DNA of 64,000 bases from NCBI GenBank assembly GCA_029262055.1, contig JAJDAD010000009.1, positions 29,297 to 93,296 on the forward strand, read 5' to 3'. Origin of the DNA: Candidatus Zhuqueibacterota bacterium (lineage in GTDB: Bacteria > Zhuqueibacterota > Zhuqueibacteria > Oceanimicrobiales > Oceanimicrobiaceae). Of this stretch, positions 23,212-62,100 are shown one piece after another. The notes under the pieces were generated by a model. It searched no databases, was not told where the DNA came from, and saw only the letters and a program-made list of their open reading frames with translations. Both the position numbers and the translations under genes were made by a program. Position 1 is the stretch's first letter, and each line of letters starts with the position of its first letter.

Positions 23212-23604
23212 ATGCGAAATCTTGAGGACAGGCAAGTGGCTATCGAGCAGGACCTGCGTGCCATTCTTTCCCTTACCAGGGAAACCAGGCGCCTGTTTGA
23301 GGAAGAGAGTTTTGAGCGGCTGTTTGCGGAGATTGCGCAGCGCGACGAGAAACTGCGGGCGCTTGCGCAAGAAATTGAGAAACTTGACGATGATGAGAGG
23401 GCGTGCCTGTTTGATCGAAAGCCATTACGTGATTTGATTCAACAGATCAAAACAATGGATGTTGATAACATGGAGGTTATCAATCTCGCTCTGACCAGCA
23501 TCTCTGATTCGATTGTTGAAATAGGACAGAAGCGAAAGGTAATTAAGGATTGGCGAAACGTGTCGTCTGCAAGAGCGAAGCAATTAATCGACTTTACTTA
23601 CTAG
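23212..23604 (+). CDS. Small helical protein, possible flagellar export chaperone (FlgN/FliT-like)
   Basis: Call rests only on position between fliD and flgM, its size (130 aa) and coiled-coil-like composition. Confidence 0.3.
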   Translation: MRNLEDRQVAIEQDLRAILSLTRETRRLFEEESFERLFAEIAQRDEKLRALAQEIEKLDDDERACLFDRKPLRDLIQQIKTMDVDNMEVINLALTSISDSIVEIGQKRKVIKDWRNVSSARAKQLIDFTY

Positions 23605-23652: not shown

Positions 23653-24003
23653 ATGAAGATCCAAGATATTTACGGTCCAAATTCTCCGGGACGAACTGAT
23701 AAATCGTCCAGCGCGATAAGAGAGACAAAGGTCCAGAAGAAGAAAGAGCAAAATCAGGCTGCCGCCGGCAACAAAGTCGATCAGGTCGAGATTTCAAGCG
23801 AAGCAAAGGAGCTTCAGAAATCTTCCAGTGAGCCTGCGGTTGCACGAGATTTGCTGTCAAATCTTCCTTCGACCCGGGCACATGTGATTTACGAAGCCTT
23901 GGCTAAGATCAAAGCAGGCTTGTATTCCAGTGACGAAATTGCCGAAGAGGCTGCTGCAAAGCTTCTTGGCAACGGTGAACTGGACGATTTGATTCGGCCC
24001 TGA
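23653..24003 (+). CDS. flgM: Anti-sigma-28 factor FlgM
   Basis: 116 aa. Disordered Lys/Ser-rich N-terminal half. C-terminal KIKAGLYSSDEIAEEAAAKLL resembles the FlgM sigma-binding helix. Flagellar context. Confidence 0.6.
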   Translation: MKIQDIYGPNSPGRTDKSSSAIRETKVQKKKEQNQAAAGNKVDQVEISSEAKELQKSSSEPAVARDLLSNLPSTRAHVIYEALAKIKAGLYSSDEIAEEAAAKLLGNGELDDLIRP

Positions 24004-24488: not shown

Positions 24489-24845
24489 TTAGGACACTTC
24501 TTTGGCTATTTCTGACTTGACGATTTGAAATTCGTCCGCGATGCTGCTCATGAGAGCGGCGGCTTCGCTTAACTCATCTTTTTTGCCGAGTTCTTCTAAC
24601 TGCCGGAAAAGGGTCGCTATCCTGGGTGCGCCGATATTGCCGCTGGCTCCTTTCAACGTATGAGCTGTCTTGACGACGGTGACTTCGTCCTCGCTATTGA
24701 TAGCCTGCGAGAGATCTTCCAGGCTACAGTGCGTGCTGGTGATATATTCAAGAAGCAAGTCTTTGAGGAAATCCGGGTCTTCTTCGTCTGCCAGCTCTCG
24801 CAGTGCTTCAATGACTTCGGGGTCTAGCGGTGTTTGTTCAGACAT
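24489..24845 (-). CDS. Stand-alone histidine phosphotransfer (Hpt) protein
   Basis: HTLKGASGNIGAP motif; 118 aa. Confidence 0.85.
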   Translation of the reverse strand: MSEQTPLDPEVIEALRELADEEDPDFLKDLLLEYITSTHCSLEDLSQAINSEDEVTVVKTAHTLKGASGNIGAPRIATLFRQLEELGKKDELSEAAALMSSIADEFQIVKSEIAKEVS

Positions 24846-24869
24846 TGTGATGCCTCATTATTGGGTCCA

Positions 24870-26078
24870 TTAGGTTAGTTCCAAAGCCAACAGAGAGATG
24901 TCATCATTCAGGGTCGCCTCACCGGCCCACTGCTCTACTTTTTCGACGGCCCTGGATAGGCTTTGGTTAAGGGGAATCTCCAGGTCGTCAGTCAAAGACC
25001 GGACAAAGCGTTCTGTCGTAAACTGTTCCTGGTTCGGGTTTATCGCTTCATTAATTCCATCGGAGTAAATAAAAAGCCGGTCACCCGCATTGAGCCTAAC
25101 GGTTCGCTCCTCATATTGGAACTCTTCGGAGAAGCCGATTGGTAAACCCGTGTTATCAAACGACTCAGGCTTGCCGTTCTTGAATAGAATAGAATTCGGG
25201 TGACCTGCTGACACAAAAGTAAATTCTTTCGTTTCAATATTCAGAATACCGTAAATAATGGTAAAGTATTGGCCTGATTCTATGTCAATCGCAAATTGAC
25301 GATTGAGTTTGTCGGCCACTTCCGCGGGAGAACTGATACGGTAAGTGCCGGGCGTTTCACCTTTTTTTCGCAGAATGTTCGAGTCCTCGGCACCTAGTGA
25401 CAAGATTCGGCTCAATGTGACGGACAGCAAAGCTGCGCTGACGCCATGGCCGCTTACGTCCAGCAAGTAAAGAGCGAGGTGTTTTTCGTCCAGGGGGAAA
25501 ACATTCAGGGTGTCGCCGGCCAGCTCATCGCACGGTTTGTACAGCCATTCAATATTGAGGTCCGGGACCTGCGGGATATCATTGGGCAGGAGTGTTTGCT
25601 GAATCCTGGCAGCCGCCTGCAAGTCGTGCTTCATGCTGGCATTGACTCTCTGCAGGCCTTGGTTGGCGGTCTCTAGCAATCTCGCTTTCTCCTGCAAATT
25701 TTCTTCCAGTCTCAGAATTCTCTCTCCGGACTGCAGGCGGGCCAGCAGTTCGTTCTTGTCGAACGGCTTGGTCAAGTAGTCGTCAGCGCCCGCCTCCATT
25801 CCTGCCACGATATCCTGAGTCTCTGATTTTGCCGTTAGCAAGATGGTGAAAACATAGCTGCCGGTGTCTTTTAGGCGTAGCCGCTTGACCACTTCGACAC
25901 CATCGAGACCAGGCATCATCCAGTCGAGAATTGCGAGAGGCGGCGCATCTTCACCCCGCAAAATCCGCCACGCGGTCAAGCCATCTGCCGCGCTGATAAC
26001 TTCATAATTAAGCCTGGTCAGAGTCTTTTCCAATATTTGACGCGAGACCGGCTCGTCGTCTGCCACAAGTACTTTCAT
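24870..26078 (-). CDS. Response regulator with PP2C/SpoIIE-type phosphatase output (RsbU/HsbR-like)
   Basis: MKVLVADDEPVSRQ..LDWMMPGLDG..TKPF receiver. Coiled coil. AARIQQTLLP..ELAGDTLNVF..LLDVSGHGVSAALL PP2C. ATGA overlap with the upstream gene. The track ORF extends to 26216. Confidence 0.85.
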   Translation of the reverse strand: MKVLVADDEPVSRQILEKTLTRLNYEVISAADGLTAWRILRGEDAPPLAILDWMMPGLDGVEVVKRLRLKDTGSYVFTILLTAKSETQDIVAGMEAGADDYLTKPFDKNELLARLQSGERILRLEENLQEKARLLETANQGLQRVNASMKHDLQAAARIQQTLLPNDIPQVPDLNIEWLYKPCDELAGDTLNVFPLDEKHLALYLLDVSGHGVSAALLSVTLSRILSLGAEDSNILRKKGETPGTYRISSPAEVADKLNRQFAIDIESGQYFTIIYGILNIETKEFTFVSAGHPNSILFKNGKPESFDNTGLPIGFSEEFQYEERTVRLNAGDRLFIYSDGINEAINPNQEQFTTERFVRSLTDDLEIPLNQSLSRAVEKVEQWAGEATLNDDISLLALELT

Positions 26079-26695
26079 GAAATCGCAGCTATTCTTTTTA
26101 CGAAAGTAATTCTGTTGCCTTTTGGGTTGAAGCGGACTTCGTCCATCAGGTTGTTGATAATCATCAAACCCATGCCATAGGCCGTCCCGGGAGCTTCGGA
26201 CGGGATGTTTGTGCAAGCAAAGCCGCTACCTTCATCTTCTACACTGAATTGTACCTGCCCGCTGCTGACCAGCAAGCTCATCTTCATCCGCCGTGCTGCA
26301 TATTTTGGCAGTTGCAGACGGGTGTCTTTGACGACTTCAAACTTCGTCGTAATACCGTCATCGGAGAATTCATCCTTCCACTCCGACTGCAATTCGAGAT
26401 TTCCGTGTTCGTGGGCATTTAACACTGCTTCCTCCAGCGCTATTGCAAGGTTGTGCATTTCCTCATCTGTGAGATTTGTGCGGCTTAACACCTCATGTAC
26501 TATGTCTTGTAAATGGCTGATGGACAATTCAGCTGATGTTAACCGGAAGTTCAACTTCACTTCGTTGACCACCTTGCAGGGCTCTTCCCTGGGCAGCGTC
26601 TCTTCCTGCTGAGTATCCACTTTGTTCAAGGCTGCTATCAAATCCTTTGCGCCAATCGGGTTCACAAGGTGGCCGCCGGCATAGTAAATCGACAC
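26075..26695 (-). CDS. RsbW/SpoIIAB-like serine kinase (HATPase_c_2) with N-terminal extension
   Basis: ALEEAVLNAHEHGN (N box), VEDEGSGF, GMGLMIINNLMDEV. The track start is GTG. The core begins near VKLNFRLTS, so the true start may be further downstream. Confidence 0.7.
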   Translation of the reverse strand: MSIYYAGGHLVNPIGAKDLIAALNKVDTQQEETLPREEPCKVVNEVKLNFRLTSAELSISHLQDIVHEVLSRTNLTDEEMHNLAIALEEAVLNAHEHGNLELQSEWKDEFSDDGITTKFEVVKDTRLQLPKYAARRMKMSLLVSSGQVQFSVEDEGSGFACTNIPSEAPGTAYGMGLMIINNLMDEVRFNPKGNRITFVKRIAAIS

Positions 26696-26746
26696 GAGCG
26701 CTATGACTTGTTCGTTTGATGCATAGTAAGTGACTGTCCAGAGCAG

Positions 26747-27619
26747 TCAGGCTGCGACGTTTTGCCAGACAGTGTGCGATTCTTTATTGGCATAGACTGT
26801 GACGTCCTGGATTCTGACTTGTTCGTACAGGTCGTCTAATCCCAGGATGACTTCAGAGCCACCAATCATGAGCAAGCCCCCGGGCATGAGCGTCTTGTGA
26901 ATATTTGTCAAAATCCGGGTTTTGGTCTCCGCGTCGAAGTAGATCAATACATTTCTGCAAAAAACAAGGTCAAACGGTCCCAGGCTGTAAGAATCTGCAT
27001 TCAGGCGGAAGGTGCTGAATTGTACCATGCGCCTGATTTCGCTCTTGATGTGCCATGTGTTGCCGTTTTGGTTAAAATACTTAGCCATATATCGTTCCGG
27101 CAGGCCACGACCCACTTCCAGGTGTGAGTATTCTCCTGTTTTGGCCTGGTTTATAACTTTCTGCGAGATATCGATGGCGTGTATGCAGACGTTCCAACCA
27201 TCAAACAAGCCAACTTCTTTCATCAACATGGCAATACTGTACGCTTCCTGTCCGGTTGAACAGGCGGCACACCATATGTTCAGAGTCTTGTTGTTCTTGC
27301 TGTCGGCAAGTCGGGGTAGAATCACTTTTTCCATTGCGGAGAACGGTTTTTGGTCACGGAACCATGAGGTCTCGTGGGTAGTCAGGGAGTCGATAACCAT
27401 GGTCTCAATCTGTGGCGCCTTCCCTGATAACGCCTGGAGTAGCTCGGCTATTGATGCATAGCCAGCGGTTCTACAGAGTGATGTGAGTCTCCCCTGCATC
27501 AGATATCGCTTTTCCGGCCCGAGGACTATGCCCGCATTTTTGTAAACATACCAGGCAATATACTCGACTTGCTCTGCTGATATCGTTGCGTCCGGAGCGC
27601 TGAGGTTGGAAATTTGCAT
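26747..27619 (-). CDS. cheR: Chemotaxis protein methyltransferase CheR (paralog 1)
   Basis: TSWFRDQKPF, LNIWCAACSTGQEAYSIAM, VFCRNVLIYFD. Confidence 0.9.
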   Translation of the reverse strand: MQISNLSAPDATISAEQVEYIAWYVYKNAGIVLGPEKRYLMQGRLTSLCRTAGYASIAELLQALSGKAPQIETMVIDSLTTHETSWFRDQKPFSAMEKVILPRLADSKNNKTLNIWCAACSTGQEAYSIAMLMKEVGLFDGWNVCIHAIDISQKVINQAKTGEYSHLEVGRGLPERYMAKYFNQNGNTWHIKSEIRRMVQFSTFRLNADSYSLGPFDLVFCRNVLIYFDAETKTRILTNIHKTLMPGGLLMIGGSEVILGLDDLYEQVRIQDVTVYANKESHTVWQNVAA

Positions 27620-28237
27620 GTCGCTCCTGGCTAGGCGTTGGCCACGATTCGGTTTTGTCCGACTAAGAGCCGAAAGAATTGCGAACGACGCTCTATCTTC
27701 TGTATGACAATGCCGGGTGTGAAGAGCTTCATGATATTATCGTCGAGCCTGCCGATTTATTTTGCCAATCTTCCGACCACCGTAATCAGCTGGTCCGGCT
27801 GAAACGTTTTAACCAGCCGGCCGTTCCTGCGGCCCGGCCCTGCTCATTTCTTCCGGGGTGCGACCCGGTAGTGAGGATTCTCGTTGTTGCAGCTGTGGCG
27901 CTAACCTGGGTCGTTACCTCCATGTTTTCGCATTCTCCTTTTCAGAGTTTAGAAGAGTACCAGATCGTCTCCGTGCTGCGGCACTGGCATTTCAGGGCTG
28001 GTGCCTTTATTACTATCGTCAGGGTGTAGGTTGAATTTGAAGGAAATCTCCCTCAAATCCGGAAATCTGGCATAATTTCATTCGCGCACCAATGCCCCTG
28101 GACTAATGACCCTGGAAGAGATTCATGACAGAAATTAACCTGGAGCGCCGGCCGTTGGTTTGATTCGGAAGGCTTGCCCCCAATGACTCTTGAATCGGTA
28201 AATTTGACCTCGTCTTAAATCTTGATCAGTAAAGAGG

Positions 28238-28263
28238 TCAAAAAAATACAATGTGTCCGATAA
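28238..28263 (+). promoter_or_regulatory. Candidate sigma-28-type promoter upstream of the cheA operon
   Basis: TCAA-N14-TCCGATAA. The 11-mer TCCGATAATCA (28256-28266) is identical to the one at 21291-21301. Confidence 0.35.
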
Positions 28264-28489
28264 TCAAACTGTAGCACCACAACAGATGCCCGGACAGACG
28301 TGCGTTTCACGCGCTGTCGTTTCCAGTCAAAGGTTGTAAAGATAGTAAGCGGGTCGTCGATGCAAAGGAGAGGGTTGGTGGGGCGTTGACCTTTATCAGC
28401 CCTTGGTAACCACCGGGTGTTAGTGGGCGAGCCCTCCCATCCGTACGACGCTTTCACAGAACATATCCACAATGACAAGGAAGAACTTT

Positions 28490-30853
28490 ATGCCGGATGT
28501 AGAACAGCAGGAATTGCTGCTTGCATTTGTTGAGGAGGGGTATGAGTTGCTGGACGAATCCGAACCATTGCTCATCGAATTGGAGGCGACGTCAAATGAG
28601 TCTGGTGAAGTCGACTACGAAGTGCTCAATACGATTTTCCGCCTTTATCACTCGCTAAAGGGTGGGGCCGGGTTCCTTGATTTGGACACTGTAGGGAAAG
28701 TCACTCATGAGGCTGAGACACTTCTTGATTTGTTTCGTAAAGGTAAAGGTTCTATAGAAGGCGACCACATTGACCTGTTGAACCGGAGCTGTGATTTCTT
28801 AAGAAATTTGCTCGAAAACATCGAGGTGAAATTTTCAGATGAAGGATTTGCCGAGCAAGCCAACGCGATCATAGCTTCCCTGCGAGAGAAGATTGCAGCA
28901 ATCACTGGTGAGGGGTCAGCCGCCACCGCGCAAACTGGTGCCGAGCTTCGACGGGAGGTAGCTGAAGACGCAACCTCGGATCAGCCCGAAGATGAAGGTG
29001 CCGCCGAAGTTCCTCAACTCACAATCACGCCTGAAATGGTGGAGCAATTCGTGGCAGAATCTGAGGACCTGCTCGGTGAAACCGAGGAAGCTTTTCTGGC
29101 TCTCGATAAGGATTCCGGCAATTCAGAACAGCTTGATGGTGCGTTTCGGTCTCTGCACAGCTTCAAAGGCAACGCCGGCTTTCTCGGTTACGCTGACCTG
29201 GAAAAACTCAGCCATCAGGCTGAAACCATACTTGACAAGGTTCGGATGGGTGAGATCAGAGGCAATAGTGAACTTTTTTCCCTGCTGCTGGAGATAGTCG
29301 ATTTTCTTGAGGATGGTGTCAAGCAGGTTGCCCGGGGCGAGCAGCCCAGCATCCCGGCTGCTAACGGACTTGTCAGCCTGATGCAGGACGCGGTCAAGAA
29401 ATTCAGTTCAAACACTTCGGCGGGTCCGGCAGAGCCGACAAAGGAAGAAGTGAACGACCCCAAGGCCGAGGAAGCAACAGTCGTGGCCGAGCCTGAACCA
29501 CCGGTGAAAGCTGTTCCTGCAAAAGAATCTGAGCCCCAGGCACAACCTGCTGCCAAGTCGACAGCCGTGCAGAGTGCAAAGACACACGAGAAACCCGCAC
29601 CGGCCGGCAAGGCCGCTGCCCAGCGGCAATCGATCCGCGTTGATGTTGACAAGCTGGAAATCCTCCTGGACCTGGTAGGTGAGTTGGTCATTGCTGAGGC
29701 CATGGTGGCGCAGAATCCGGATCTGGTGGACTTGGATGTTTCGCTGGAGAATTTTGAAAAGTCGTCCATGCATTTGAACAAGATAACCAGGGATCTGCAA
29801 GACGTCGCAACCAAGATTCGCATGGTGCCGCTCTCGGCAAGTTTTCGCCGGATGATTCGATTGGTACGGGACCTGGCGCGCAAGACAGGTAAGAAGGTTG
29901 ATTTCAAAATCGTCGGAGAACATACCGAGGTCGACAAAACCGTTATTGAGCAGATCGCCGATCCTCTCGTTCACATTATTCGCAACTCTATTGACCACGG
30001 AATTGCGACGCCGGCCAATCGTCGGGAATTAGGGAAACCCGAGGTAGGAAAATTGACTCTCGAAGCGAAGTATGTGGGCGGAGAAGTATGGATTTCCGTT
30101 TCCGATGACGGCATGGGATTGAATCGTGAAATGATACTAAGGAAGGCGATCGAGAAGGGCCTGGTCGAGGGCGATGGCTCTGCTTTGCCGAATGAAGAGG
30201 TGTGGCCACTGATTTTTCAGCCGGGTTTTTCTACGGCCGCTAAGGTTACGGATTTGTCCGGCCGTGGTGTGGGGATGGATGTTGTTCGCCGCAACATCGA
30301 GAACATCCGAGGGAAGGTAGATATCAAAAGCACCGAGGGTGAGGGCAGTGAGGTCATTCTTCGGATTCCGCTCACGCTGGCCATCATCGACGGTATGATC
30401 ACCAGGGTTGGGGCGAGTCGCTATATCATACCCATCCTTGCCATCAAGGAAACCCTGCGAGCCAACCCGGACGATATTACCAGGACCATGGATGGTCAGG
30501 AAATTATCAGGATTCGAGACGGCTTCTACCCAGTGATTAGAGTACACGAATTGTACGGCACCAAATCCGAGTACGTAAATTTGCCGGACGGCATTATTGT
30601 CGTAGTCGAAAGCGACGGCAAGAGGGTTTGCCTCTTTGTCGATGAATTAATCGCGCAACAGCAAGTCGTGATCAAGGGGTTATCAGAATATGTTGGCAAA
30701 GTCTCGGCGATCTCCGGATGTACGATCCTCGCTGACGGCACCGTTTGTCTCATCGTCGATATTGGCGGTCTTATCGCCGCAACTGAAAGCGGCGAGAAAA
30801 TGATCGCCGGTCCAACTGTTGTTGATGAAGAAATGGAAAATGTATCGGCCTAG
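28490..30853 (+). CDS. cheA: Chemotaxis histidine kinase CheA with two tandem Hpt (P1) domains
   Basis: YHSLKGGAGFL (His codon 28649-28651) and LHSFKGNAGFLG (His codon 29156-29158). Pro/Ala/Glu-rich linker. Dimerisation domain, HATPase (DDGMGL, GRGVGMDVV) and CheW-like domain. AAGGAAG RBS before the ATG at 28490; the track start is 28472. Confidence 0.9.
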   Translation: MPDVEQQELLLAFVEEGYELLDESEPLLIELEATSNESGEVDYEVLNTIFRLYHSLKGGAGFLDLDTVGKVTHEAETLLDLFRKGKGSIEGDHIDLLNRSCDFLRNLLENIEVKFSDEGFAEQANAIIASLREKIAAITGEGSAATAQTGAELRREVAEDATSDQPEDEGAAEVPQLTITPEMVEQFVAESEDLLGETEEAFLALDKDSGNSEQLDGAFRSLHSFKGNAGFLGYADLEKLSHQAETILDKVRMGEIRGNSELFSLLLEIVDFLEDGVKQVARGEQPSIPAANGLVSLMQDAVKKFSSNTSAGPAEPTKEEVNDPKAEEATVVAEPEPPVKAVPAKESEPQAQPAAKSTAVQSAKTHEKPAPAGKAAAQRQSIRVDVDKLEILLDLVGELVIAEAMVAQNPDLVDLDVSLENFEKSSMHLNKITRDLQDVATKIRMVPLSASFRRMIRLVRDLARKTGKKVDFKIVGEHTEVDKTVIEQIADPLVHIIRNSIDHGIATPANRRELGKPEVGKLTLEAKYVGGEVWISVSDDGMGLNREMILRKAIEKGLVEGDGSALPNEEVWPLIFQPGFSTAAKVTDLSGRGVGMDVVRRNIENIRGKVDIKSTEGEGSEVILRIPLTLAIIDGMITRVGASRYIIPILAIKETLRANPDDITRTMDGQEIIRIRDGFYPVIRVHELYGTKSEYVNLPDGIIVVVESDGKRVCLFVDELIAQQQVVIKGLSEYVGKVSAISGCTILADGTVCLIVDIGGLIAATESGEKMIAGPTVVDEEMENVSA

Positions 30854-36698: not shown

Positions 36699-37529
36699 GT
36701 GGCAATCGCATTGTCAGACAAGGAGTTTCGGCTCATTAGGGATTTTGTTTATGAGCGGTTTGGCATTAACCTGACCGAGCAAAAACGGCCATTGATGGCT
36801 GGACGCCTGCAGTCTGTTCTACAAAAGCTCCGGCTTACTTCCTTCAAGGCTTACTACGATTATTTGTTGCAGGAACCTGGCGGTGAAGGACTGACCACGC
36901 TGGTTAACCGCATTTCAACCAACCATACTTTTTTTTACCGGGAGCCGGCGCACTTTGAGTTTTTGCAGCAGGAAGTGTTACCGAAGCACATGGAGAGTGC
37001 CAAACGAACAGGTAATAAGAAGTTGCGTATCTGGTGTGCCGGTTGCTCTAGTGGCGAGGAACCCTATACGCTGTCAATGGTATTACGTGAATACCTGCGT
37101 GGCGAGCTAGATTCCTGGGACATTGGTATCCTTGCCACCGACATTTCAGGGCGGGTGCTTCAGATTGCCCAACATGGAATCTACACCGAAGATAGTTTGT
37201 CTCATCTGCCAAAACCATATAGGCAACGCTACTTCAAGCGCACTGAAGCCGGCTCTTGGGCAGTTGTTGATTCGATAAAAGGGATGGTGGTTTTCAGGAA
37301 ATTCAATTTGATGCGCCGTACATTTCCTTTTAACGGAAAGTTCGACGTCATTTTTTGCCGCAATGTCATGATCTACTTCGATAAGGCAACTCGCAGCGCA
37401 CTTGTAGAGCGCTTTTACAAGTGCACTGAGCGCGGCGGATATTTGTTTGTCGGCCATTCTGAAACGTTGGGACGGGGTGAGTGCTTTTACGAATATCGAA
37501 AGCCTGCCACCTACAGAAAGGAGCACTAG
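36699..37529 (+). CDS. cheR: Chemotaxis protein methyltransferase CheR (paralog 2)
   Basis: GTG start. TNHTFFYREPAHF, LRIWCAGCSSGEEPYTLSM, IFCRNVMIYFD. Confidence 0.9.
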   Translation: MAIALSDKEFRLIRDFVYERFGINLTEQKRPLMAGRLQSVLQKLRLTSFKAYYDYLLQEPGGEGLTTLVNRISTNHTFFYREPAHFEFLQQEVLPKHMESAKRTGNKKLRIWCAGCSSGEEPYTLSMVLREYLRGELDSWDIGILATDISGRVLQIAQHGIYTEDSLSHLPKPYRQRYFKRTEAGSWAVVDSIKGMVVFRKFNLMRRTFPFNGKFDVIFCRNVMIYFDKATRSALVERFYKCTERGGYLFVGHSETLGRGECFYEYRKPATYRKEH

Positions 37530-43890: not shown

Positions 43891-45150
43891 TTGATGAATT
43901 TGTTTAAAGCCCTTGATTTTTCTGTCATCCCAGCCCACGCGTACCATGCCGCACTTGCATGTGGCTTACCTCTCGCCATCTGGCGCCATCCCGGCGCGAG
44001 CGAAGCTCAGACTGTTGTTGCATTTGGAGGTGATGTCGGTACCGGCCCTGTGGATTTCTGCGACGGAAACCCAGGTTTTGTTTTTTCTCAGTTTACGAAT
44101 AGTCCGGGCCAGGGGTTTTTTATTGACGCTGATTTCTGTAGCTACGGAAAGGACGGGTTTGTTTGTAACCGGGATAGCAACGGACGGAGCACCGGCGGCG
44201 AGTTTCTCGACATGCTGCGGCAATACAGGCAACGTCCTGTTGACGCGCCCCATTCCTGGTACGAGAGTTCGGGTCTACCGCCTGCAATAGTCTCCACCGC
44301 TGAGGCGACATTCTGTGAGTGGGTGGAGAGAGTCTTGGAGAGGATCAGGGACGGCGACCTGAGCAAAGTCGTCTTGTCCCGTGTTCAGGAGTGTGAGCTC
44401 GCACTGGATTTTCACCCGCTGGCGTTGTTTCGTAAGCTGTGCACTGCCTACCGTACAGCGTTTGTCTCCCTGGTGGCGATTCCTGGTATAGGGACCTGGG
44501 TTGGCGCTACCCCCGAACTGCTCGCCAGCTTGAAGGATGACACCTTCACAACAGTGGCTTTGGCCGGAACCCGACCTGTTGCTCCCGAATCCGACAAGTG
44601 GTCGGGCACCTGGCACGAAAAGGAAATTGTCGAGCAGGCCATGGTGAGCGAATTTATCCGCGACTGCTTTGTCGCGCAAGGTATATTTGATTTTTCTGAA
44701 ACCGGGACAGAGACGGCGCGGATAGGCGACTTGCTTCATCTGCAGACCGGGTTCACCTTACGCAATGCTTCCAGGTATGCCGGCGCAGAGCTGCAGAGGT
44801 TCTTGACAGCGCTGCACCCGACTCCGGCAGTCTGCGGTGTCCCCAAGGCCGGCGCTCTGGACTACATTGCGAGCATTGAAGACCACGACCGTCAATTCTA
44901 CGCCGGCTATCTCGGGCCGGTCAATCTGAATCGAGAGTCGCAGCTTTTCGTGAATCTGCGCTGCCTGCAAATGCACGGCCAGTCAGCGGTTCTTTACGCT
45001 GGTGGCGGGATCACGGTCGATTCTGTTCCCGAACGAGAATGGCTTGAGACCGAGCTTAAACTGGACGCACTTCTGCGTTTCCTGGGGCCGGGACGGCAGT
45101 CCAGCATAGCCGGCAGAGATCAGGCCGCGGAATTGCTTTGTTATGACTGA
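43891..45150 (+). CDS. menF: Isochorismate synthase
   Basis: GATPELL, LAGTRP, LHPTPAVCGVPK, YAGYLGP, YAGGGITVDSVPEREWLETELK. men operon context. Confidence 0.8.
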   Translation: MMNLFKALDFSVIPAHAYHAALACGLPLAIWRHPGASEAQTVVAFGGDVGTGPVDFCDGNPGFVFSQFTNSPGQGFFIDADFCSYGKDGFVCNRDSNGRSTGGEFLDMLRQYRQRPVDAPHSWYESSGLPPAIVSTAEATFCEWVERVLERIRDGDLSKVVLSRVQECELALDFHPLALFRKLCTAYRTAFVSLVAIPGIGTWVGATPELLASLKDDTFTTVALAGTRPVAPESDKWSGTWHEKEIVEQAMVSEFIRDCFVAQGIFDFSETGTETARIGDLLHLQTGFTLRNASRYAGAELQRFLTALHPTPAVCGVPKAGALDYIASIEDHDRQFYAGYLGPVNLNRESQLFVNLRCLQMHGQSAVLYAGGGITVDSVPEREWLETELKLDALLRFLGPGRQSSIAGRDQAAELLCYD

Positions 45151-46846
45151 CGTCAAGCAGAGTATCTTTGACATCGCCGAGATTTCCCGCTCCATGGGAG
45201 TGCGAAATGCGATTGTTTCTCCCGGTTCGCGCTCTGCGCCACTTACCCTGGCATTTGTACGCCATCCCGGCATAACGTGCCGTGCCGTCGTCGATGAACG
45301 TTCGGCTGCGTTCGTGGCGCTCGGTATTGCCAGGCAAACCCAAAGCCCCGTTGCAGTGATTTGTACCTCCGGCACAGCGGCCCTTAACCTGGCTTCCGCG
45401 GTGGCCGAGGCCTTTTTTCAGCAAATACCGTTGCTGGTGCTAACTGCGGACCGGCCGCCTGAGTGGATCGCCCAGAATGATGGGCAAACAGTCTTTCAAC
45501 GAAACCTGTATGGCGACAATTGTCGAGGGTATTTTGAACTCCCGGTGGACTACGATCATCCGGACGCGAAATGGCAGATTCGGCGCACGCTCTCAGATGC
45601 AATCAATTGCGCAACTGACAGCGTGCCGGGCCCGGTACACGTAAATGTGCCATTGCGCGAGCCGCTTTATCCCGGGACTCCGTTTACCTACTCGCAAGGT
45701 ATTCGGACCATTACAGCAGCTTCGTCCGAGCGTCGACTGCCGGACAGCGAGTGGGACCAACTGCTGGACATCTGGAACAGTTGTGATCAAAAACTCATCG
45801 TCGCCGGCCTGCAGGCTCCGGATGCCGGTTTAAACCGCAGAATCGAGGCTTGTCTCGGCAAAGCTGATGTGGTCTTGTTGGGAGATGTCGTTTCCAACTG
45901 CAAGCAGGATCCGGAAATTTACCACTACGACGCGATTCTGCACTCCGGCTCGGAGGCCTTGCTGAAGAGTCTGAAACCCGATCTGCTGCTCACCTTCGGT
46001 GGCCCGGTGGTTTCGAAATCTCTGAAGCAGTTCCTGCGCAAGTATACACCGGAGTATCACTGGCACCTGCAGTTTGAGAGTAAGTCCATCGACCCGTTCC
46101 AGTCTCTTACCACAATTCTGCCGGTGTCACCCGATTATTTTTTCGAGAGCCTTGCAACTGAATTGATGGCTCCATTTCCCGTGCGGAAGTATCGCGGCAA
46201 GTGGCTGCGCGCGCAAAGGTTTGCCAGCGACCTGGTTCGGGCTTTCTTAGACCAGGCGGAAATGTCCGAGATTCTTGCCATGGCCGAGGTCTTGGATGTC
46301 ATACAACCAGAGAGCGTTCTGCACCTGGGGAATAGCGCAATCGTCAGATTGGCAAGTTTTGTAGGGCAACGACAAGCAGAGGGATTGACGGTCTATTCTA
46401 ACCGTGGGACCAATGGCATCGATGGGACCCTGAGTAGCGCAGTTGGTGCGGCTCTGTCAACCTCGCGGCTTACCACGGTTATTTTGGGTGATCTGTCTTT
46501 TTTTTACGATCGAAACGCTTTGTGGCAGGCCGAGTTGCCGCCTAATTTGCGGATCATCGTTTTCAACAATCACGGCGGCGGGATTTTTCGTGTTCTGGAT
46601 GGCAGCAAGGAGATGCCCGAGCTGGAGTCATTCTTCGAAGTCAGTCACAGCCTGTCAGCGAAGAATACGGCCCTGGACCACGGAGTGAAGTACTCTACCT
46701 GTGACTCCATCGAGGCTTTGCGCGAAGAACTGCCCGGCTTTTTCGACACGGGCAAAGGCCCGGGGTTGTTGGAAGTACAATTTGACCGGGCCGGTAATGC
46801 CGAAACTTTTCTAAATTTCAAAGCTTTGTTAAGGGAGATTTCATGA
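45143..46846 (+). CDS. menD: 2-succinyl-5-enolpyruvyl-6-hydroxy-3-cyclohexene-1-carboxylate synthase
   Basis: [14 protein letters not shown]; ThDP motif [20 protein letters not shown]. Confidence 0.9.
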
Positions 46847-47670
46847 CTGAAAACGAAATACAGTGGTCAACCATAAAGGAGTTCGAGGATATCCTTTTTA
46901 CCTTCAATGACGGCATCGCAAAAATCAGCATCAACCGCCCCGGTGTGCACAACGCTTTTCGGCCAAAGACTGTTTTTGAGCTTGCTGAGGCGTTCGAGCT
47001 GGCACGGCAAAACCCGGACGTCGGGGTGGTGATCTTGACCGGCGAAGGCGGCAAAGCTTTTTGCAGCGGCGGTGATCAAAATGTCAGGAATGTTGGTGGC
47101 TATGTCGGTTCGGACGGCGTACCGCGTCTGAATATTCTGGACGTCCAGAAGCAGATCCGTTCGATTCCCAAGCCGGTCGTGGCTATGGTTGCAGGCTGGG
47201 CAATTGGCGGCGGCCACGTGCTGCATGTTGTTTGCGACCTGACGGTTGCTGCTGACAATGCGCGGTTCGGCCAGACCGGCCCGAATGTCGGAAGCTTTGA
47301 CGGCGGCTTCGGCGCTTCATTTCTCGCGCGTATCGTCGGACAAAAGAAGGCGCGCGAAATTTGGTACTTGTGCGATCAGTACGATGCCGCGGAGGCGCTG
47401 CAGATGGGACTTGTTAACAAGGTCGTGCCGCTTGCCGAGTTGGAGAAAGAGACTGTCCGGTGGTGCCGGAAGATCCTGACCAAATCGCCGCTTGCGCTCC
47501 GCATGCTGAAGTCTTCGTTCAATGCTGAGCTGGATGGACAGGCTGGCCTGCAGGAGCTTGCCGGCAATGCCACCCTGCTTTATTATCTGACCGAAGAGGC
47601 CAATGAAGGCCGCAAGGCGTATGTTGAAAAACGTAAGCCGGATTTTTCCAAATTTCCGCGCTTTCCATAA
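46843..47670 (+). CDS. menB: 1,4-dihydroxy-2-naphthoyl-CoA synthase
   Basis: Crotonase fold. [53 protein letters not shown]. Confidence 0.95.
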
Positions 47671-47679
47671 GGCCACAGG

Positions 47680-48567
47680 ATGGTGAACATTGCAAATGTC
47701 AGTGCCTGGTTTTCTGCTTTTCGACTGCGGACGTTACCGCTAGCGGTCGCCAGTATTTCTCTGGGCAGCTTCCTGGCCGCTGCTGAGGACTCATTCCAGT
47801 GGCAGGTCTCGCTGCTGGCTCTGTTGACGGCCTTCTTACTACAGATTCTGTCAAATCTTGCCAACGACTACGGCGACTCGGTCCACGGTGCAGACAGCGA
47901 GCGCAGGGTCGGTCCGCAACGTGCGACTCAGTCCGGCCGAATCACCTCTCGTCTCATGCGTGCTGCGGTATTGGTCCTTGTCGGGTTATGCCTGGCATCC
48001 GGTTACCTGCTTATCAGAGGAGAGAGTTACGTTTTCCACGTTTCCGGTTTGGCGGCAATTGCCGCTGCTGTGGCCTACACAGTGGGTCCGCGGCCGTACG
48101 GTTATGTCGGGCTTGGCGATCTGTTTGTTTTTCTGTTTTTTGGTATTGTCGGCGTGTGCGGCAGCTATTATCTGCACACGCACAGGCTCAATCTCCTAAC
48201 CCTTCTGCCGGCAGTATCCTGCGGTGTTTTTTGCGTCGCCGTTCTCAATATCAACAATCTGCGCGACATGACATCCGACCAGTTGGCCGGGAAGATAACG
48301 ATGGCGGTCAGGCTTGGCGGTTACAAGGCACGGATTTATCATTGGATTCTTCTGCTGGTTGGTTTGGGATCTGCTAGCGCTTATATCTTTTTGACCTACA
48401 AAACCGCCTGGCAGTGGCTGTTTCTTGCTGTCGTACCTCTGCTGTTGCGCAACGGCCGGGGTATTTTTTCTCAGCAGGATGCTACGCTCCTTGACCCGTA
48501 TCTCAAACAAATGGCCTTGACCACTCTGCTGTTCAGTTTTCTGTTCGGGGCCGGTATGCTGCTTTGA
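47680..48567 (+). CDS. menA: 1,4-dihydroxy-2-naphthoate polyprenyltransferase
   Basis: UbiA family. NLANDYGDSVHGAD and NNLRDMTSD. Multiple TM helices. Confidence 0.9.
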   Translation: MVNIANVSAWFSAFRLRTLPLAVASISLGSFLAAAEDSFQWQVSLLALLTAFLLQILSNLANDYGDSVHGADSERRVGPQRATQSGRITSRLMRAAVLVLVGLCLASGYLLIRGESYVFHVSGLAAIAAAVAYTVGPRPYGYVGLGDLFVFLFFGIVGVCGSYYLHTHRLNLLTLLPAVSCGVFCVAVLNINNLRDMTSDQLAGKITMAVRLGGYKARIYHWILLLVGLGSASAYIFLTYKTAWQWLFLAVVPLLLRNGRGIFSQQDATLLDPYLKQMALTTLLFSFLFGAGMLL

Positions 48568-49640
48568 AACCCGTTCGACTTGAAGTCGCAAAAGTTACAC
48601 TCGATCTCGTGCGGCCCATGGGCACATCGCGCGGCGTGCTGCACAAGCACGATTCCTATCTGCTGGCTGCCTTCGATGATGCGGGGAATTATGGATTGGG
48701 CGAGTGTGCGCCTCTGCCCGGATTGAGCATCGACGACCGGCCTGATTTGGAGCAGCATCTTGGTTATGTTTCCCAACAACTCAAGCACGGCGCCCTGCTA
48801 AGCGATTTGGACCTGAAGGAATGGCCGGCGGTTCGCTTCGGTTTAGAGAGCAGTTTGTTGGACCTTGAGCACGGTGGCCGCCGAATGTTCTATCCCTCCG
48901 CTTTTGCACGTGGACAGGACTCTATCGCCACCAACGGCCTCATCGTAATGGCAGACGTGGAGGATATGCGGCAGCAGGTCTCGGCTAAAGTTGCCGCGGG
49001 CTTCTCCTGCATTAAATTGAAAGTGGGGGCGCTGGACTTCGAAAGCGAGTGCCGGCTACTGTTTGAAATCCGTAGAGAATACCCGTTTCCGGAAATCGAG
49101 TTGCGTCTGGATGCGAATGGTGCATTCTCAGCGTCGTCGGCCCTGGAAAAACTGAATGCTCTCTCCAGGTTTCAGGTGCATTCTATCGAACAACCTGTAA
49201 GGCCCGGGAACCGGGAGGCGCTGCATGAGATTTGCCGGATGAGTCCAATCCCCATCGCGCTTGATGAGGAATTGATCGGCGTGTCTGGACTTTCCGAAAA
49301 ACGAGCATTGCTCGAGGACGTTTTGCCGCAGTTTGTTATTTTAAAGCCAACTCTTCTCGGGGGTCTGCAGGCTGCCAGTGAATGGGTGGAGTTGGCAAGA
49401 ACACTGGGGATCGGCTATTGGGTGACTTCCGCCCTTGAGTCCAATGTGGGGCTCAATGTCCTGTGTCAGTGGGCCGCTGTGTTAAGCGGCACGTTGACGC
49501 AAGGTCTGGGAACCGGACTGCTCTATAAGCACAACTGGCCGGGTCCGGTTAAGCTGGAAGGCGGGCGCCTGTTCTTCGAGGCTGGTTTTGCAGAGCCCCC
49601 GAAAACCTCCCTCCAGGATTTTCTGAGGAGCTGGCGATGA
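48564..49640 (+). CDS. menC: o-Succinylbenzoate synthase (enolase superfamily)
   Basis: KLKVG, LRLDANGAF, IEQP, ALDEEL. men operon context. Confidence 0.8.
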   Translation: MKPVRLEVAKVTLDLVRPMGTSRGVLHKHDSYLLAAFDDAGNYGLGECAPLPGLSIDDRPDLEQHLGYVSQQLKHGALLSDLDLKEWPAVRFGLESSLLDLEHGGRRMFYPSAFARGQDSIATNGLIVMADVEDMRQQVSAKVAAGFSCIKLKVGALDFESECRLLFEIRREYPFPEIELRLDANGAFSASSALEKLNALSRFQVHSIEQPVRPGNREALHEICRMSPIPIALDEELIGVSGLSEKRALLEDVLPQFVILKPTLLGGLQAASEWVELARTLGIGYWVTSALESNVGLNVLCQWAAVLSGTLTQGLGTGLLYKHNWPGPVKLEGGRLFFEAGFAEPPKTSLQDFLRSWR

Positions 49641-50767
49641 AGGCAGACTTCGAACTCCGGTTGGCGGATAAAGCGTACGATACCGACTGGTTCCGTTCAC
49701 ATTTCCCCAATTGCAGTCCCCGGGACTTTGATGAAAATGAATTCGCTGTCTTGAACTTCTGCAGTGAATGGCTAAGCGGGAAACCGCATTTTTCCGTACA
49801 AACATCCGGTTCGACCGGTAAACCGCGTCCGATTCTGCTGTCGCGGCAACAGATGATAAACAGCGCCAAATTGACCCGGCGGGCACTCGGGTTGAAATCG
49901 GGGGATCATGCGTTGTTGTGCCTGTCGCCAGCGCACATCGCAGGAAAAATGATGTTGGTTAGAGCGTTGGAGATCGGACTGGCAATCACGGCCGTCACAG
50001 CCGGCCGCAATCCGTTTGACAGCTATCCGCCCGAAGAAGTCCCGTGCTTCGACTTTGCCGCATTCGTGCCGCTGCAATTGCGGACTATTATCGAACGTGG
50101 TGGAGTCGGCCTGGAGCGGGTGGATGCAATGAAGGCTGTCCTGGTTGGAGGCGCCGAGCTGCCGGCCGGCTTCGATGACCTTTTGCAGGAACTGCAAGCG
50201 CCGCTTTACCAGACGTTTGGCATGACCGAGACCTCGACTCACATCGCGCTCAGGCGTCTCAACGGTGCTGCTGCGTCTGACTCATATAAAGTACTACCCG
50301 GAATTACAGTTGCCCGGGATGCCCGTGGATGTTTGACCATCAAGGGTTCGGTGACAGATGATAGAACAGTCGTGACAAACGATGTCGTTGAGTTTGAAGC
50401 GGATGGGTCTTTTAGGTGGCGCGGTCGTTTCGACAACGTGATCAATTCGGGCGGGATCAAGGTGCAGGCCGAGCACGTAGAGCAGGTCATCGCAGAGGTG
50501 TTGCAAGAGGTGTCTACGAAGTTCGCAACAGCGGAGTTTTTTGTGGCGGGAGTTCCCGCTCCCGATGTTGGCGAGCAGGTGGCAGTCTTCTTTGAAACCG
50601 ATGAACTCTCCGTTTCGGACACCGATCACCTGCGCGACCTGCTCAGCAACAGGCTTTCCCGTTACGAAATCCCCAGGTTGTTTCGGTCTACCCGCCGATT
50701 TTCCCGCACTCCGACTGCCAAGCTGGATCGGAAAGCAACGATTTCCGCGGTTCTCTGCGACGACTAA
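49637..50767 (+). CDS. menE: o-Succinylbenzoate--CoA ligase (short form)
   Basis: TSGSTGKPRPILLS, TFGMTET, WRGRFDNVINSGGIKVQAEHVE, TAKLDRK. men operon context. Confidence 0.8.
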   Translation: MKADFELRLADKAYDTDWFRSHFPNCSPRDFDENEFAVLNFCSEWLSGKPHFSVQTSGSTGKPRPILLSRQQMINSAKLTRRALGLKSGDHALLCLSPAHIAGKMMLVRALEIGLAITAVTAGRNPFDSYPPEEVPCFDFAAFVPLQLRTIIERGGVGLERVDAMKAVLVGGAELPAGFDDLLQELQAPLYQTFGMTETSTHIALRRLNGAAASDSYKVLPGITVARDARGCLTIKGSVTDDRTVVTNDVVEFEADGSFRWRGRFDNVINSGGIKVQAEHVEQVIAEVLQEVSTKFATAEFFVAGVPAPDVGEQVAVFFETDELSVSDTDHLRDLLSNRLSRYEIPRLFRSTRRFSRTPTAKLDRKATISAVLCDD

Positions 50768-58408: not shown

Positions 58409-58804
58409 TCAGTTTGCTAGAGAAAGCTGCTCGAATTTGAGTAGGGTGTCGCCGAGCCTGATAACGCAGCCATCACATAGCGGCGTTGCTTCGGTGACTT
58501 TCTCGCCATTTACAAAAACACCATTGCGGCTGTGGCGGTCCTGAATTTTGAAGATCTCATTCTCGTACAGAATCGAGGCGTGTTTGTTCGAAATATGTTC
58601 GTCACCCAGAACAATTATGTTGCCACAGTCGTGTCCGATTGTCGTGCGCCCGTTGCGCAGGACAAACAGGGCTCCTTCCGGCTCCCCTTCTACCACGGAC
58701 AACCGGGCTTTGATCTCACTGGCCGGCTTCATCCTTGAGCCACATTGCGTGCAAAAATTATGAGCTGTGCGTGACTGCGAACCGCAGGACTTACAAATCG
58801 TCAT
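58409..58804 (-). CDS. Zinc-ribbon + FHA domain protein
   Basis: CKSCGS-x11-CTQCG, then TTIGHDCGNIIVLGDEHISNKHASI..SRNGVFVNGEKV (FHA). Confidence 0.8.
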   Translation of the reverse strand: MTICKSCGSQSRTAHNFCTQCGSRMKPASEIKARLSVVEGEPEGALFVLRNGRTTIGHDCGNIIVLGDEHISNKHASILYENEIFKIQDRHSRNGVFVNGEKVTEATPLCDGCVIRLGDTLLKFEQLSLAN

Positions 58805-58833
58805 TGTTCTACTCCGAGCTTACTGTGGGAAAG

Positions 58834-59127
58834 TCATGGCTCATCAACGCGTGCGTCTGCTAACGCTTTCCGCGACTTTTCATATAGTTCGCGGGCTTGA
58901 GTGTGTTCCGGGTGTTCTTTCAGGACATTCTCAAAGATCTGCTTGGCCGCCGCATACTTGCCTTCGTTATAGTACACGATTGCCAAATCGAAACGGATAT
59001 CCTGGACCTTCAAGTCCTGACGCGTCACAAAGTCGCTGTCGTTTTGTACGGTCAAATTATAGCCGCAAAATCCACAAAACCGGTCCCCGTTCGCGCCTCC
59101 AGTTCCACATCTTGGACAGATGTTCAT
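58834..59127 (-). CDS. Zinc-ribbon + TPR small protein
   Basis: MNICPRCG-x10-CGFCG, then LAIVYYNEGKYAAAKQIFENVLKEHPEH. AAGGAA RBS before the ATG at 59127. The track ORF uses a TTG at 59163. Confidence 0.6.
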   Translation of the reverse strand: MNICPRCGTGGANGDRFCGFCGYNLTVQNDSDFVTRQDLKVQDIRFDLAIVYYNEGKYAAAKQIFENVLKEHPEHTQARELYEKSRKALADARVDEP

Positions 59128-59164
59128 TTTTTGATTCCTTTTTGAAATAGATTGTGCTGGCAAA

Positions 59165-62100
59165 TTACCTTTTGTTGACTCCGGCTTTCGTCTTCACTCC
59201 AGAAGATATTTTGTCATCAACAACTATCACCGTTTCAGGCAGGATCTGGTCAAGAATCTCCAAGATTTCACTAGCTTTTGATTTTAACCCCAGTTCCGTG
59301 CAAAGCGACAGTGAGTTTTCGTAGTATTGTCTTGCGGTCTCACTGTCATTTTTGTTTTGGGCAAGCTCGGCATATGCGCTGTAACATTCGGCGAGACCTT
59401 CTTTGTAAGCAAGGCTCTCATTGATGTCGATGCTCATCTTCAGGAACTTTTCCGCCTTGGAATATTGTTCGCGGGCGCTGTAGATTAACCCCCAAATGTG
59501 ATAGACCTCAGCGACATTTAACGTATCGTCCGCGCTCTTGAAGAACTTTAAGGCCTTTTCAGAATAGCTTTTTGCCTGCTCAAGGTCCTTGTTTTGTTTG
59601 ACTAAGGTTTTTCCCAGATTCATCATGGCCAGTGCCCGCAAGGGCCTGTCATTTATGTCTTCTGCCAGTTTCACGCAGCGCTCAAACGCCGAGACTGCAC
59701 CGCCCCATTCGCATTTATCCATCAGGGTCATTCCGATGTTATGGTAGATGCGACCCTGGTCCTGTTCACACTTTTCTTTGGTTTCGTAGATTTCGAGCGC
59801 GCTCTCATAGTTCGCCATCGCCTCGTCGTGCCGCCCGCGGATGTTCGCAATAATTCCGAGGTTGGTCAATGCGTGTGCCCTTTCTGCTTTGGCCGACTCT
59901 TCACCCGAAGCGCCTTCGAGCACTTCCCGAAAATAAGTGGCGGCAGTGCTGTAGTCACCTTTGTGGAAATAGATGAGCCCAAGGTTGTTCAGAGCTCGCC
60001 TCAGGATTGCCGCCAGATTTTCTGCCTTGGCGATTCTCAGGCAGCTTTCGTAACTCTTACGCGATGCATCCCAATCTGCTAGCTTCCCCTGGATTCGGCC
60101 GATAGACAACAGGGCATTGGCCTCCGCTGAATTGCTGTCGGCTTGCTTTGCGAGCCGCAAACTGGTTTTGAACGCGGCCAGGCTGTCCTCCGGGCGACCG
60201 GTTTCCTCGTAACAGACTCCCAGCCTTTCGTGCAACTCCACTTCATTCAGGGATTCTGGCAAATTGACACCGGACTCGGTCATTGAGTCGAGGAAGTTTT
60301 CGAAAAACAAGCTCGATTCCCGATAAGCATTCAGGGTAAATGCACGCACACCCGCTTCGTACAAGAAGGGAGTCGCTTCGGAGTGATTGCCGCCGCGGCG
60401 CAAATGGTCAGCGACCTCGCCAACATAGGAGCCCAGGTCTGTTCCGTACATCGCCTGTAGCTCGGCGGCTATCATGAGATGGTACTCACGCCTCAGGGCA
60501 GCCGGGATATCGTTGTACAGCAAGTCGCGCAACATCGGATGTTCGAACTGAAAGCCGTGCTCATTGCTCGATATTATCTGCAATTCGCGCTCAATCCGTT
60601 GAAAATCTTTGAGGAGTTTCAGTTTCTTCTCTTCCAGTACTTTGGCTAAAACAGAGGCGTCCACCTTATAACCTTGTACGGCAGCAACCTGTAGCAACTC
60701 CTGTTCTTGCTCATCCAGACCACTGATACGGCGCAGGAAAATGTCTTCGATTCTGTCGGGCACAGCAGGACTAAAATCTTGATCCTTGTTCTGCCATGTC
60801 CCTTCGTCCTGGAAGATTACTTCGTCGTCCTGCAACTGCTTCAGAGTCTCTGTCACAAAGAACGGGTTGCCCTTGGTCTCATCAAACAATGAGTCATAAA
60901 ACCGGTCGGTAAACAAATTGGGAGAGTACTTTTTGTCGACCAACATTGTGCAACTCTCTTTGTCGAACTTTTCCAGGTCCAGCTGGACGTAGTTGCCTTC
61001 GCGACGTACGCGGGCAAGGGTATTAAGCAATTTCCCCGGCTTGCCATGCTTTCTTAGATCATAACGGTCCGTCCGGCTTATGCCGAGCATGAGGATGGCT
61101 TCCTTGCCTACGTAGCGGGAGAGATAATGGAACAGACGCAAGCTCGCTTCGTCGGCCCACTGGATGTCATCGAGGATGAGCAAGACCGGCCGGTACTCTG
61201 ACAGCGTCTTGACAAATTGGTAGATACCCTCGTTGAGGTTGGGATCGCTGCTTGCCTCCGGGCCACCGCCGATGGGACCGCCAAAGCTGGTCGTAAAGCG
61301 TTCGCTGAATTCCAACAGAAAGGGCACTCGTTCCCGTACCATTTCCTTCATCTCCTGCCGCTTGTCTTCCGGCAAGCTGTGGCTGTCCCTGCTAAAGAAA
61401 GAGCGCAGGGCATCTATGTACGGCAGATACGCATCCATCCCCTCCTGGTACAAACATGCCCCGTACAGAACGCAGGCACCATTCATCTGAGCATACTTCT
61501 TGAACCGGTTTGCCAGCGTGCTCTTGCCAACCCCGGCTTCTCCCATTAGAATGACCGTCTGGCCAACGCCCTGCTTTGCTTTCTGGTACAAGCTTACCAG
61601 CTTTTTTAGCTCAGGCCGACGACCGATGAATACCGGGCGCCCACCGGGGAGGTTTTGTCTTTCTTCGTCCAGGTTATTTTCGGAATCGAGCAATCCGTCG
61701 ATGTTGACCTGCGGCGTCCGTGTCTGCTGGCTCACCGAGCGCAGAGCCTCCGCAAACTCATCTGCTGAATGCCACCTTTCTTCCTTCTGTTTGTCGATTG
61801 CCTTCAGGACAACATCATCCAGGGCACTCTTGACCTGGGAGTTGTAATGTGAGGGTGGAATTGGATCTTCATTCAACTGATTATAGAGGATCGCTGCGGG
61901 GGAGTCGCTCGTAAACGGTAGCCTACCCGTCAACATCTCGTACAACACGATACCCGCCGCATAGATGTCACAGCGGGTGTCCACGGCTTCACCCAACAAT
62001 TGTTCAGGGGCCATGTACTGAACGGTCCCTACCACGTCTCCGGCCATGGTCAGGCCCTGTTTGGCCAGAGTTTTTGCGACCCCGAAATCGAGGACTTTTA

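Follow-up and report, generated by a model that had tools for sequence, protein, structure and literature searches.

A STAS-less partner-switching module beside flgM as the probable remnant of a deletion-eroded chemosensory operon in a Zhuqueibacterota bacterium

Introduction

The HptB–HsbR–HsbA pathway of Pseudomonas aeruginosa and Pseudomonas putida (PA3345–PA3347) includes a histidine phosphotransfer (Hpt) protein that feeds a receiver (REC) controlling a PP2C phosphatase; unphosphorylated HsbA binds FlgM, and the genes are found downstream of cheR (PMC6482189; bioRxiv 10.1101/2021.08.29.457346). In Shewanella oneidensis, the che1 locus comprises CheA, CheY, CheW, CheR, CheD, CheB and methyl-accepting chemotaxis proteins (MCPs), together with a partner-switching regulator and a STAS antagonist (PMC9855816). 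LvrC from Leptospira interrogans, in turn, is fed by the kinases LvrA and LvrB and has not been described together with STAS, PP2C or a Che operon (PMC13269768). Here, we analysed a stretch of 64,000 nucleotides (hereafter the window) from Candidatus Zhuqueibacterota bacterium (assembly GCA_029262055.1, contig JAJDAD010000009.1, positions 29,297–93,296), with a focus on a module of four genes at window positions 24489–27619, which encode a CheR paralogue, an RsbW-like kinase, a REC-PP2C phosphatase and an Hpt protein next to a probable flgM gene.

On balance, this module is probably the intact distal part of a Che-type chemosensory and partner-switching operon that was eroded by deletion, with the survivors still working and a STAS protein encoded elsewhere. 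According to this reading, the locus reflects the decay of a known circuit type rather than a new STAS-free switch: an in-situ deletion of the operon head, which carried STAS, accounts for a partner switch without this protein and removes the apparent anomaly.

The module genes

The original prediction, made from the sequence of the window, had described four co-directional minus-strand genes for cheR, an RsbW-like kinase, REC-PP2C and Hpt with ATGA coupling, with which the open reading frames (ORFs) and Pfam assignments agree. It had also placed the kinase/phosphatase pair with its Hpt input beside flgM in the same general class as HptB–HsbR–HsbA, which is borne out here, and its account of the Pseudomonas locus matches the two publications cited above for that system. 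The assembly of the locus is identical in Logan contigs of three runs.

The cheR paralogue of the partner-switch Che operon (26747–27619, minus strand) encodes 290 residues (PF01739, E 2e-58). It is followed by the kinase gene (26075–26695, minus), whose product was assigned as an RsbW/SpoIIAB/LvrC-like GHKL serine kinase or anti-sigma domain (HATPase_c_2, PF13581, E 2e-18), with a length of 206 residues from a GTG codon; the public gene call starts at 26665 and gives 196 residues. The kinase displays the N-box (E89/N93/H97), G1 (D154-G156-G158) and G2 (G174-G176) motifs. In its AlphaFold2 model, the Bergerat core has a predicted local distance difference test (pLDDT) score of ~90, and a Foldseek search with this model returned LvrC (Protein Data Bank [PDB] entry 9qih) on top with E 2e-10, as well as RsbW and SpoIIAB with E-values of 1e-7 to 1e-6. 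Unlike LvrC-type kinases and those of the Calditrichota/KSB1 operons, the window kinase is missing the receiver domain. Only a single TGA (26747–26749) stands between the cheR and kinase ORFs, which share one reading frame, so that read-through would yield a CheR–kinase fusion; this arrangement may be a mere by-product of deletion.

The kinase gene is upstream of the gene for the REC plus SpoIIE/PP2C phosphatase (24870–26078, minus; 402 residues from the ATG at 26078; PF00072, E 5e-27, and PF07228, E 6e-42), and the stop codon of the former overlaps the start codon of the latter within ATGA at 26075–26078. The phosphatase keeps both the receiver residues D7/D8, D52, T82 and K104 and the PP2C motifs DVSGHG, SAGH, YSDG and NDD. 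By sequence, the PDB entry closest to it is P. aeruginosa RssB (3eq2), and its top NCBIfam match is RssB_Pseudo, with 160 bits against a cut-off of 700. The last gene (24489–24845, minus) encodes a single-domain Hpt protein of 118 residues (PF01627, E 1e-12), in which the predicted phosphotransfer site, His62, is present within an HTLKG motif.

The intact operon in relatives

Gene neighbourhoods showed that one operon is conserved among Calditrichaceae, KSB1 and unclassified relatives, whose loci are referred to here by L-numbers. Its order is STAS, CheY1, CheA-REC, CheW, MCP, CheY2, CheB, CheR, a small membrane ORF, REC-kinase and REC-PP2C, and the window order CheR, kinase, REC-PP2C matches its distal end. 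The full STAS-headed operon is found in L008, L010, L013 and L060, and L017 carries the same operon on a contig that begins just past the STAS position. In L060, the full operon is divergent from the main cheA–cheW–protoglobin–MCP operon, which is the site of the window cluster. An Hpt gene comes right after the operon in L013 and a few kilobases downstream in L008.

Each of the four window proteins has counterparts in these loci. The module CheR is 47–50% identical to the CheR proteins of L008, L010, L011, L013, L016, L017, L053 and L060, and only 33.6% identical to the main CheR of the window (36699–37529). REC-PP2C shows 49–56% identity to its operon orthologues (54–56% to those of L007, L008, L013 and L053), the kinase 34–45%, and Hpt 40–43% to the Hpt proteins of the L008 and L013 operons. 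A scan of metagenome contigs for closer relatives gave a best identity of 45%, mostly on short contigs.

Homologues of the kinase are mostly fusions of ~300 residues with an N-terminal receiver and the same kinase domain (REC-kinase). An exhaustive search retrieved 684 representatives of this family at E ≤ 1e-10, and about three quarters of the best 150 of these have the length and layout of REC-kinase. Kinase and phosphatase are always encoded by separate genes in the family, REC-kinase first and REC-PP2C second, often with a 4-nucleotide overlap, which is also present in L002 and L060. Directly upstream of REC-kinase, a small ORF of 78–86 residues was found in L008 (9456–9695), L010 (9433–9687), L013 (9354–9590) and L007 (7663–7923). 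Its product is predicted to be membrane-associated and has the motif W..AF.I....IR[DN]T..Y...P[FY]..A[RK] without a Pfam match. In two further loci, L016 (1450–3656) and L017 (9596–11800), two tandem REC-kinase paralogues come after cheR, without a PP2C gene.

This family-wide layout bears on the original prediction that the module derives from an HsbR orthologue split into two translationally coupled genes. The domain set (REC, PP2C and kinase) is indeed the same, and Hpt, cheR and flgM are nearby. However, the gene order of kinase then REC-PP2C is the reverse of the HsbR domain order, the nearest relatives of the kinase are REC-kinase proteins separate from REC-PP2C across Calditrichota, KSB1 and other phyla, and the best family model for the phosphatase, of the RssB type, scores far below its cut-off. 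The module is not considered a split HsbR because separate kinase and phosphatase genes, in reversed order, are the family norm; the change in the window lies in the kinase, which lost its receiver. We regard a split HsbR as very improbable.

Remnants of the lost genes

The 850 bp between cheR and the divergent cheA (27620–28471) contain no intact gene, only fragments of CheY. Closest to cheR, a CheY2 pseudogene fragment (27691–27744, minus) covers the C-terminal ~18 residues (tblastn 24.6–26.9 bits, 56–71% identity) and matches CheY2 of L008, L011, L013, L017 and L060, with other receivers at ≤16.5 bits; in the intact operons, the CheY2 gene precedes cheB. Farther upstream, a CheY1 pseudogene fragment (27763–27902, minus) covers the C-terminal ~45 residues (tblastn 28–33.5 bits, 48–74% identity). 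It consists of two colinear high-scoring segment pairs in different frames, 27902–27810 and 27822–27763 (residues 77–109 and 105–124), with a frameshift near 27810–27822, and matches only CheY1 of L008, L010, L013, L017 and L060, with other receivers at ≤21.6 bits; the CheY1 gene comes right after STAS in the intact operons. A shuffle control (n = 300) reached 20.8 bits at best, against up to 33.5 bits for the CheY fragments, each of which is specific to its own orthologous CheY class among ~75 receiver domains. The order CheY1, CheY2, cheR is that of the operon.

The remaining stretch up to the divergent cheA (27903–28471) is non-coding and corresponds to the expected STAS site; it has no detectable STAS remnant, as a STAS hidden Markov model (HMM) and tblastn gave nothing significant and Rfam no match. 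Likewise, no remnants of STAS, CheA, CheW, MCP or CheB were found in 27620–28471, and the conserved membrane ORF of 78–86 residues was searched for in the window and is absent.

A further putative vestige, of the lost kinase receiver (β4–α5), lies at 26600–26746 (minus), from just past the cheR TGA into the N-terminus of the kinase and in the reading frame of cheR. In pairwise alignments, the window kinase matches REC residues ~100–120 (β5–α5) of its homologues from residue 6 onwards, and a weaker tblastn alignment with REC-kinase of L060 runs upstream across the cheR stop codon. This assignment rests on family-specific alignments because a generic REC HMM is only marginal for the kinase N-terminus (E ~0.03).

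The simplest reading of these remnants is a series of in-situ deletions. One would have taken STAS and the front of CheY1; another, CheA, CheW, MCP and the front of CheY2; and another, CheB. A further deletion would have taken the small membrane ORF and the front of the kinase receiver.

Recurrent erosion in relatives

Reduced forms of the operon were found in three other loci. In L053, divergent from its own main cheA, there are STAS, a C-terminal CheB remnant, CheR, REC-kinase and REC-PP2C; a called ORF of 93 residues between STAS and cheR (L053, 6252–6572) overlaps the CheB remnant (tblastn E 2e-10). The operon has thus been eroded independently in L053. All that L012 retains is STAS and REC-kinase, between cheA and flgM. 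In L007, the small ORF is kept together with a receiver-less kinase and REC-PP2C; this group converges on flgM, and STAS is absent within 8 kb. No operon remnants were found in L012 or L007. The receiver-less kinases of the window and L007 group together with moderate support (82/87), and their deletion boundaries differ.

The window cheR paralogue is the leftover of a dedicated Che system, and its retention in two independent reductions, in the window and L053, would be compatible with a continuing role. Several erosion states of one chemosensory and partner-switch operon are documented, mostly at a shared chromosomal site, from the complete operon of L060 to the window remnant. They help to understand how chemotaxis-like pathways are dismantled, with output modules perhaps re-used beside flagellar genes, as in Pseudomonas.

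The STAS partner and the output

Pfam scans of practically every plausible ORF, with the two window MCPs covered by precomputed Pfam assignments, revealed neither PF01740 nor PF13466 in the 64-kb window, and when all window ORFs of at least 50 residues were compared with an HMM of the cognate STAS clade, the best match had E = 11. The earlier observation that the window has no STAS ORF is thus upheld by both approaches. Its interpretation as a design feature of the circuit is not, as relatives have a dedicated STAS and the operon head has been deleted here, with CheY fragments left behind. The cognate STAS proteins belong to a single clade, in which the serine of ITSTGIGK is invariant, and in all contexts retrieved for this clade they either adjoin REC-kinase or come first in such a Che operon, which points to a conventional STAS protein as the normal substrate of the family.

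A module that is independent of STAS, with the kinase acting as an LvrC-like anti-sigma factor or on FlgM/FliA and REC-PP2C having another substrate, was also considered. It would be in line with the lack of a STAS gene within 8–10 kb at the family loci L007, L009, L014, L019 and L024, and with the adjacency of module and flgM in three genomes. However, most family members with enough context pair with the one STAS clade and its invariant serine. Full retention of the ATP-binding motifs agrees with a working kinase, the translational coupling of PP2C to the kinase is a hallmark of a phospho-STAS cycle, and direct evidence for any non-STAS target was not found. Such a module is decidedly unlikely.

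No sigma factor gene is present beside the module, and flgM adjacency is the only hint at a target. By analogy with HsbA in Pseudomonas, the output may touch FlgM/sigma-28 because related modules adjoin flgM in those three genomes. A variant in which the receiver-less kinase and the Hpt-controlled PP2C were rewired, either onto FlgM, FliA or another non-STAS protein or onto a captured STAS protein heading a type IX secretion cargo operon, seems quite unlikely to us. If rewiring occurred, stand-alone modules of the HptB/HsbR kind beside flagellar genes would arise by erosion of chemosensory operons, and capture of such a STAS protein would link flagellar and chemotaxis signalling to surface-protein export.

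Signs of function

The favoured reading holds that an eroded operon left a working distal part, and the four surviving genes are probably still functional. In such a circuit, the kinase without its receiver would phosphorylate a STAS protein constitutively, and phosphorylated Hpt would act on the receiver of the phosphatase to switch the enzyme. Hpt would be fed by hybrid kinases encoded elsewhere, the phosphatase receiver possibly also by the neighbouring main CheA, and the gene for the STAS substrate would now lie elsewhere in the genome.

The main competitor is a non-functional relic, in which the loss of the entire operon is under way and the genes are intact merely for lack of time, with neither partner nor output. 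The deletion of the operon head including STAS and the loss of the kinase receiver and the adjacent small ORF are as expected for a relic, and the related receiver-less kinase of L007 is on a very long tree branch. Against this, the four ORFs extend over 3060 bp without a stop or frameshift beside 850 bp without coding capacity. The kinase keeps 23/23 residues that are invariant among 12 orthologues, REC-PP2C keeps 127/140 positions invariant among its orthologues, and the changes of CheR at conserved positions are mostly conservative. Moreover, the catalytic and ATP-binding motifs of receiver, PP2C, Hpt and kinase are all present, the branch of the window kinase is short (0.36), and L053, L007 and L012 still carry reduced modules of a similar kind. 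The ATGA coupling of kinase and phosphatase, shared with L002 and L060, and the confident Bergerat core of the AlphaFold2 model likewise speak for function. We therefore consider a relic unlikely.

Several points nevertheless weigh against a working remnant of the operon, and some of them favour a relic. The CheY fragments are still 48–74% identical to their orthologues, which would allow for recent deletions, with too little time for the intact genes to have decayed. A promoter was not recognised upstream of cheR, scans for promoter, terminator and sigma-28 motifs gave nothing above chance on the minus strand, and a look for RNA runs found none. The start codon of the kinase is not certain, and the link to flgM consists of synteny within one lineage and analogy with Pseudomonas. 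Finally, no STAS partner for the module emerged from the scans within the window, and a search of 5.8 billion proteins with cluster and contig look-ups found no cognate-clade STAS from the samples of the window, although this search was word-based and does not demonstrate absence.

Genomic surroundings

The module converges on a probable flgM gene (23653–24003, plus strand; 116 residues), identified through sub-threshold FlgM profile matches with scores under the curated cut-offs (Pfam, 21 bits vs. 25; TIGR03824, 27 bits vs. 40.75). Its orthologues come after fliS–fliD in L007 (68% identity) and L012 (56%), as in the window. The convergence on flgM reported in the original prediction is accordingly retained, with the gene at a conserved site and its identity as FlgM probable. 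Between fliD and flgM, an ORF of 130 residues (23212–23604) has no Pfam or NCBIfam match and a counterpart in L007 with 24% identity; by position, it may encode a FliT/FlgN-type chaperone.

On the other side of the module, the main chemotaxis cheA (28472–30853, plus; assigned by Pfam) opens the divergent flagellar che operon, which continues with cheW, two MCP genes, the second cheR, cheB, an HDOD gene, cheY/cheX genes and fliM. With the main CheA of L053, and likewise with that of L060, the CheA encoded here shares 65% of its residues, and, as seen from the gene neighbourhoods, the main cheA marks a conserved insertion site of the partner-switch operon. Pfam gives two Hpt (P1) stretches for this CheA, which would have two such domains.

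Directly upstream of fliS/fliD, a large sugar-modification island spans 611–20850. It encodes NeuB, a cytidylyltransferase, an aminotransferase, a radical SAM/B12 enzyme, two sulfotransferases and an AMP-ligase, as well as a GT4-GT2-TPR protein of 944 residues; this large glycosyltransferase is also encoded at the same place in L007 and L012. The island is likely involved in flagellin glycosylation, perhaps with a sulfated nonulosonic acid. After the che–fliM operon, a gene run at 43891–50767 has Pfam domains typical of menaquinone biosynthesis (chorismate-binding, TPP enzyme, enoyl-CoA hydratase, UbiA prenyltransferase, MR_MLE/MenC-like and AMP-binding). Finally, the minus strand at 58409–62530 includes a gene for a Hanks-type Ser/Thr kinase of 1121 residues with AAA_16 and TPR domains, adjoined by a zinc-ribbon/FHA protein of 131 residues, a separate phospho-signalling pair.

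Comparison with known systems

The module shares with the RsbU/RsbV/RsbW and SpoIIE/SpoIIAA/SpoIIAB systems of Bacillus the kinase fold, a SpoIIE-type PP2C and separate kinase and phosphatase genes. It differs in that neither a STAS nor a sigma factor gene is adjacent and in that the input is via receiver and Hpt rather than RsbT or a stressosome.

The likeness to HptB–HsbR–HsbA comprises a stand-alone Hpt, a receiver-controlled PP2C, an opposing RsbW-like kinase and the flagellar neighbourhood. However, HsbR is a single REC-PP2C-kinase polypeptide, whereas the window has two genes in the opposite order, a distinction based on layout. A further difference is that the kinase family of the window normally has a receiver of its own. 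Moreover, the STAS protein HsbA is encoded by the first gene of the Pseudomonas operon, whereas the window has no STAS gene and CheY fragments upstream.

The che1 locus of S. oneidensis with CrsR/CrsA (PMC9855816) embodies the same idea as the intact operons of L008, L010, L013 and L060. CrsR is a fused REC-PP2C-kinase, whereas the Calditrichota/KSB1 operons have two receiver-bearing enzymes and STAS in first place. Compared with che1, the window keeps only CheR and the enzymes.

Among solved and characterised proteins, the kinase family is most closely related to LvrC (LIC11110) from L. interrogans (PDB 9qih; PMC13269768), an entry in which the title reads LvrC and the PDB molecule name is “SenB”. 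LvrC consists of a receiver and an RsbW-like Bergerat domain over ~300 residues, and the profile of the kinase family matches it end to end (E 3e-29). LvrC and the window kinase share an extended insertion of the HEHG..L.S.WK type after the N-box; they differ in the receiver, which LvrC has and the window kinase does not, and their sequence identity is only ~20%. Through this locus, an uncharacterised and widespread family of REC-kinase proteins is connected with LvrC, itself newly described, and with a specific STAS clade.

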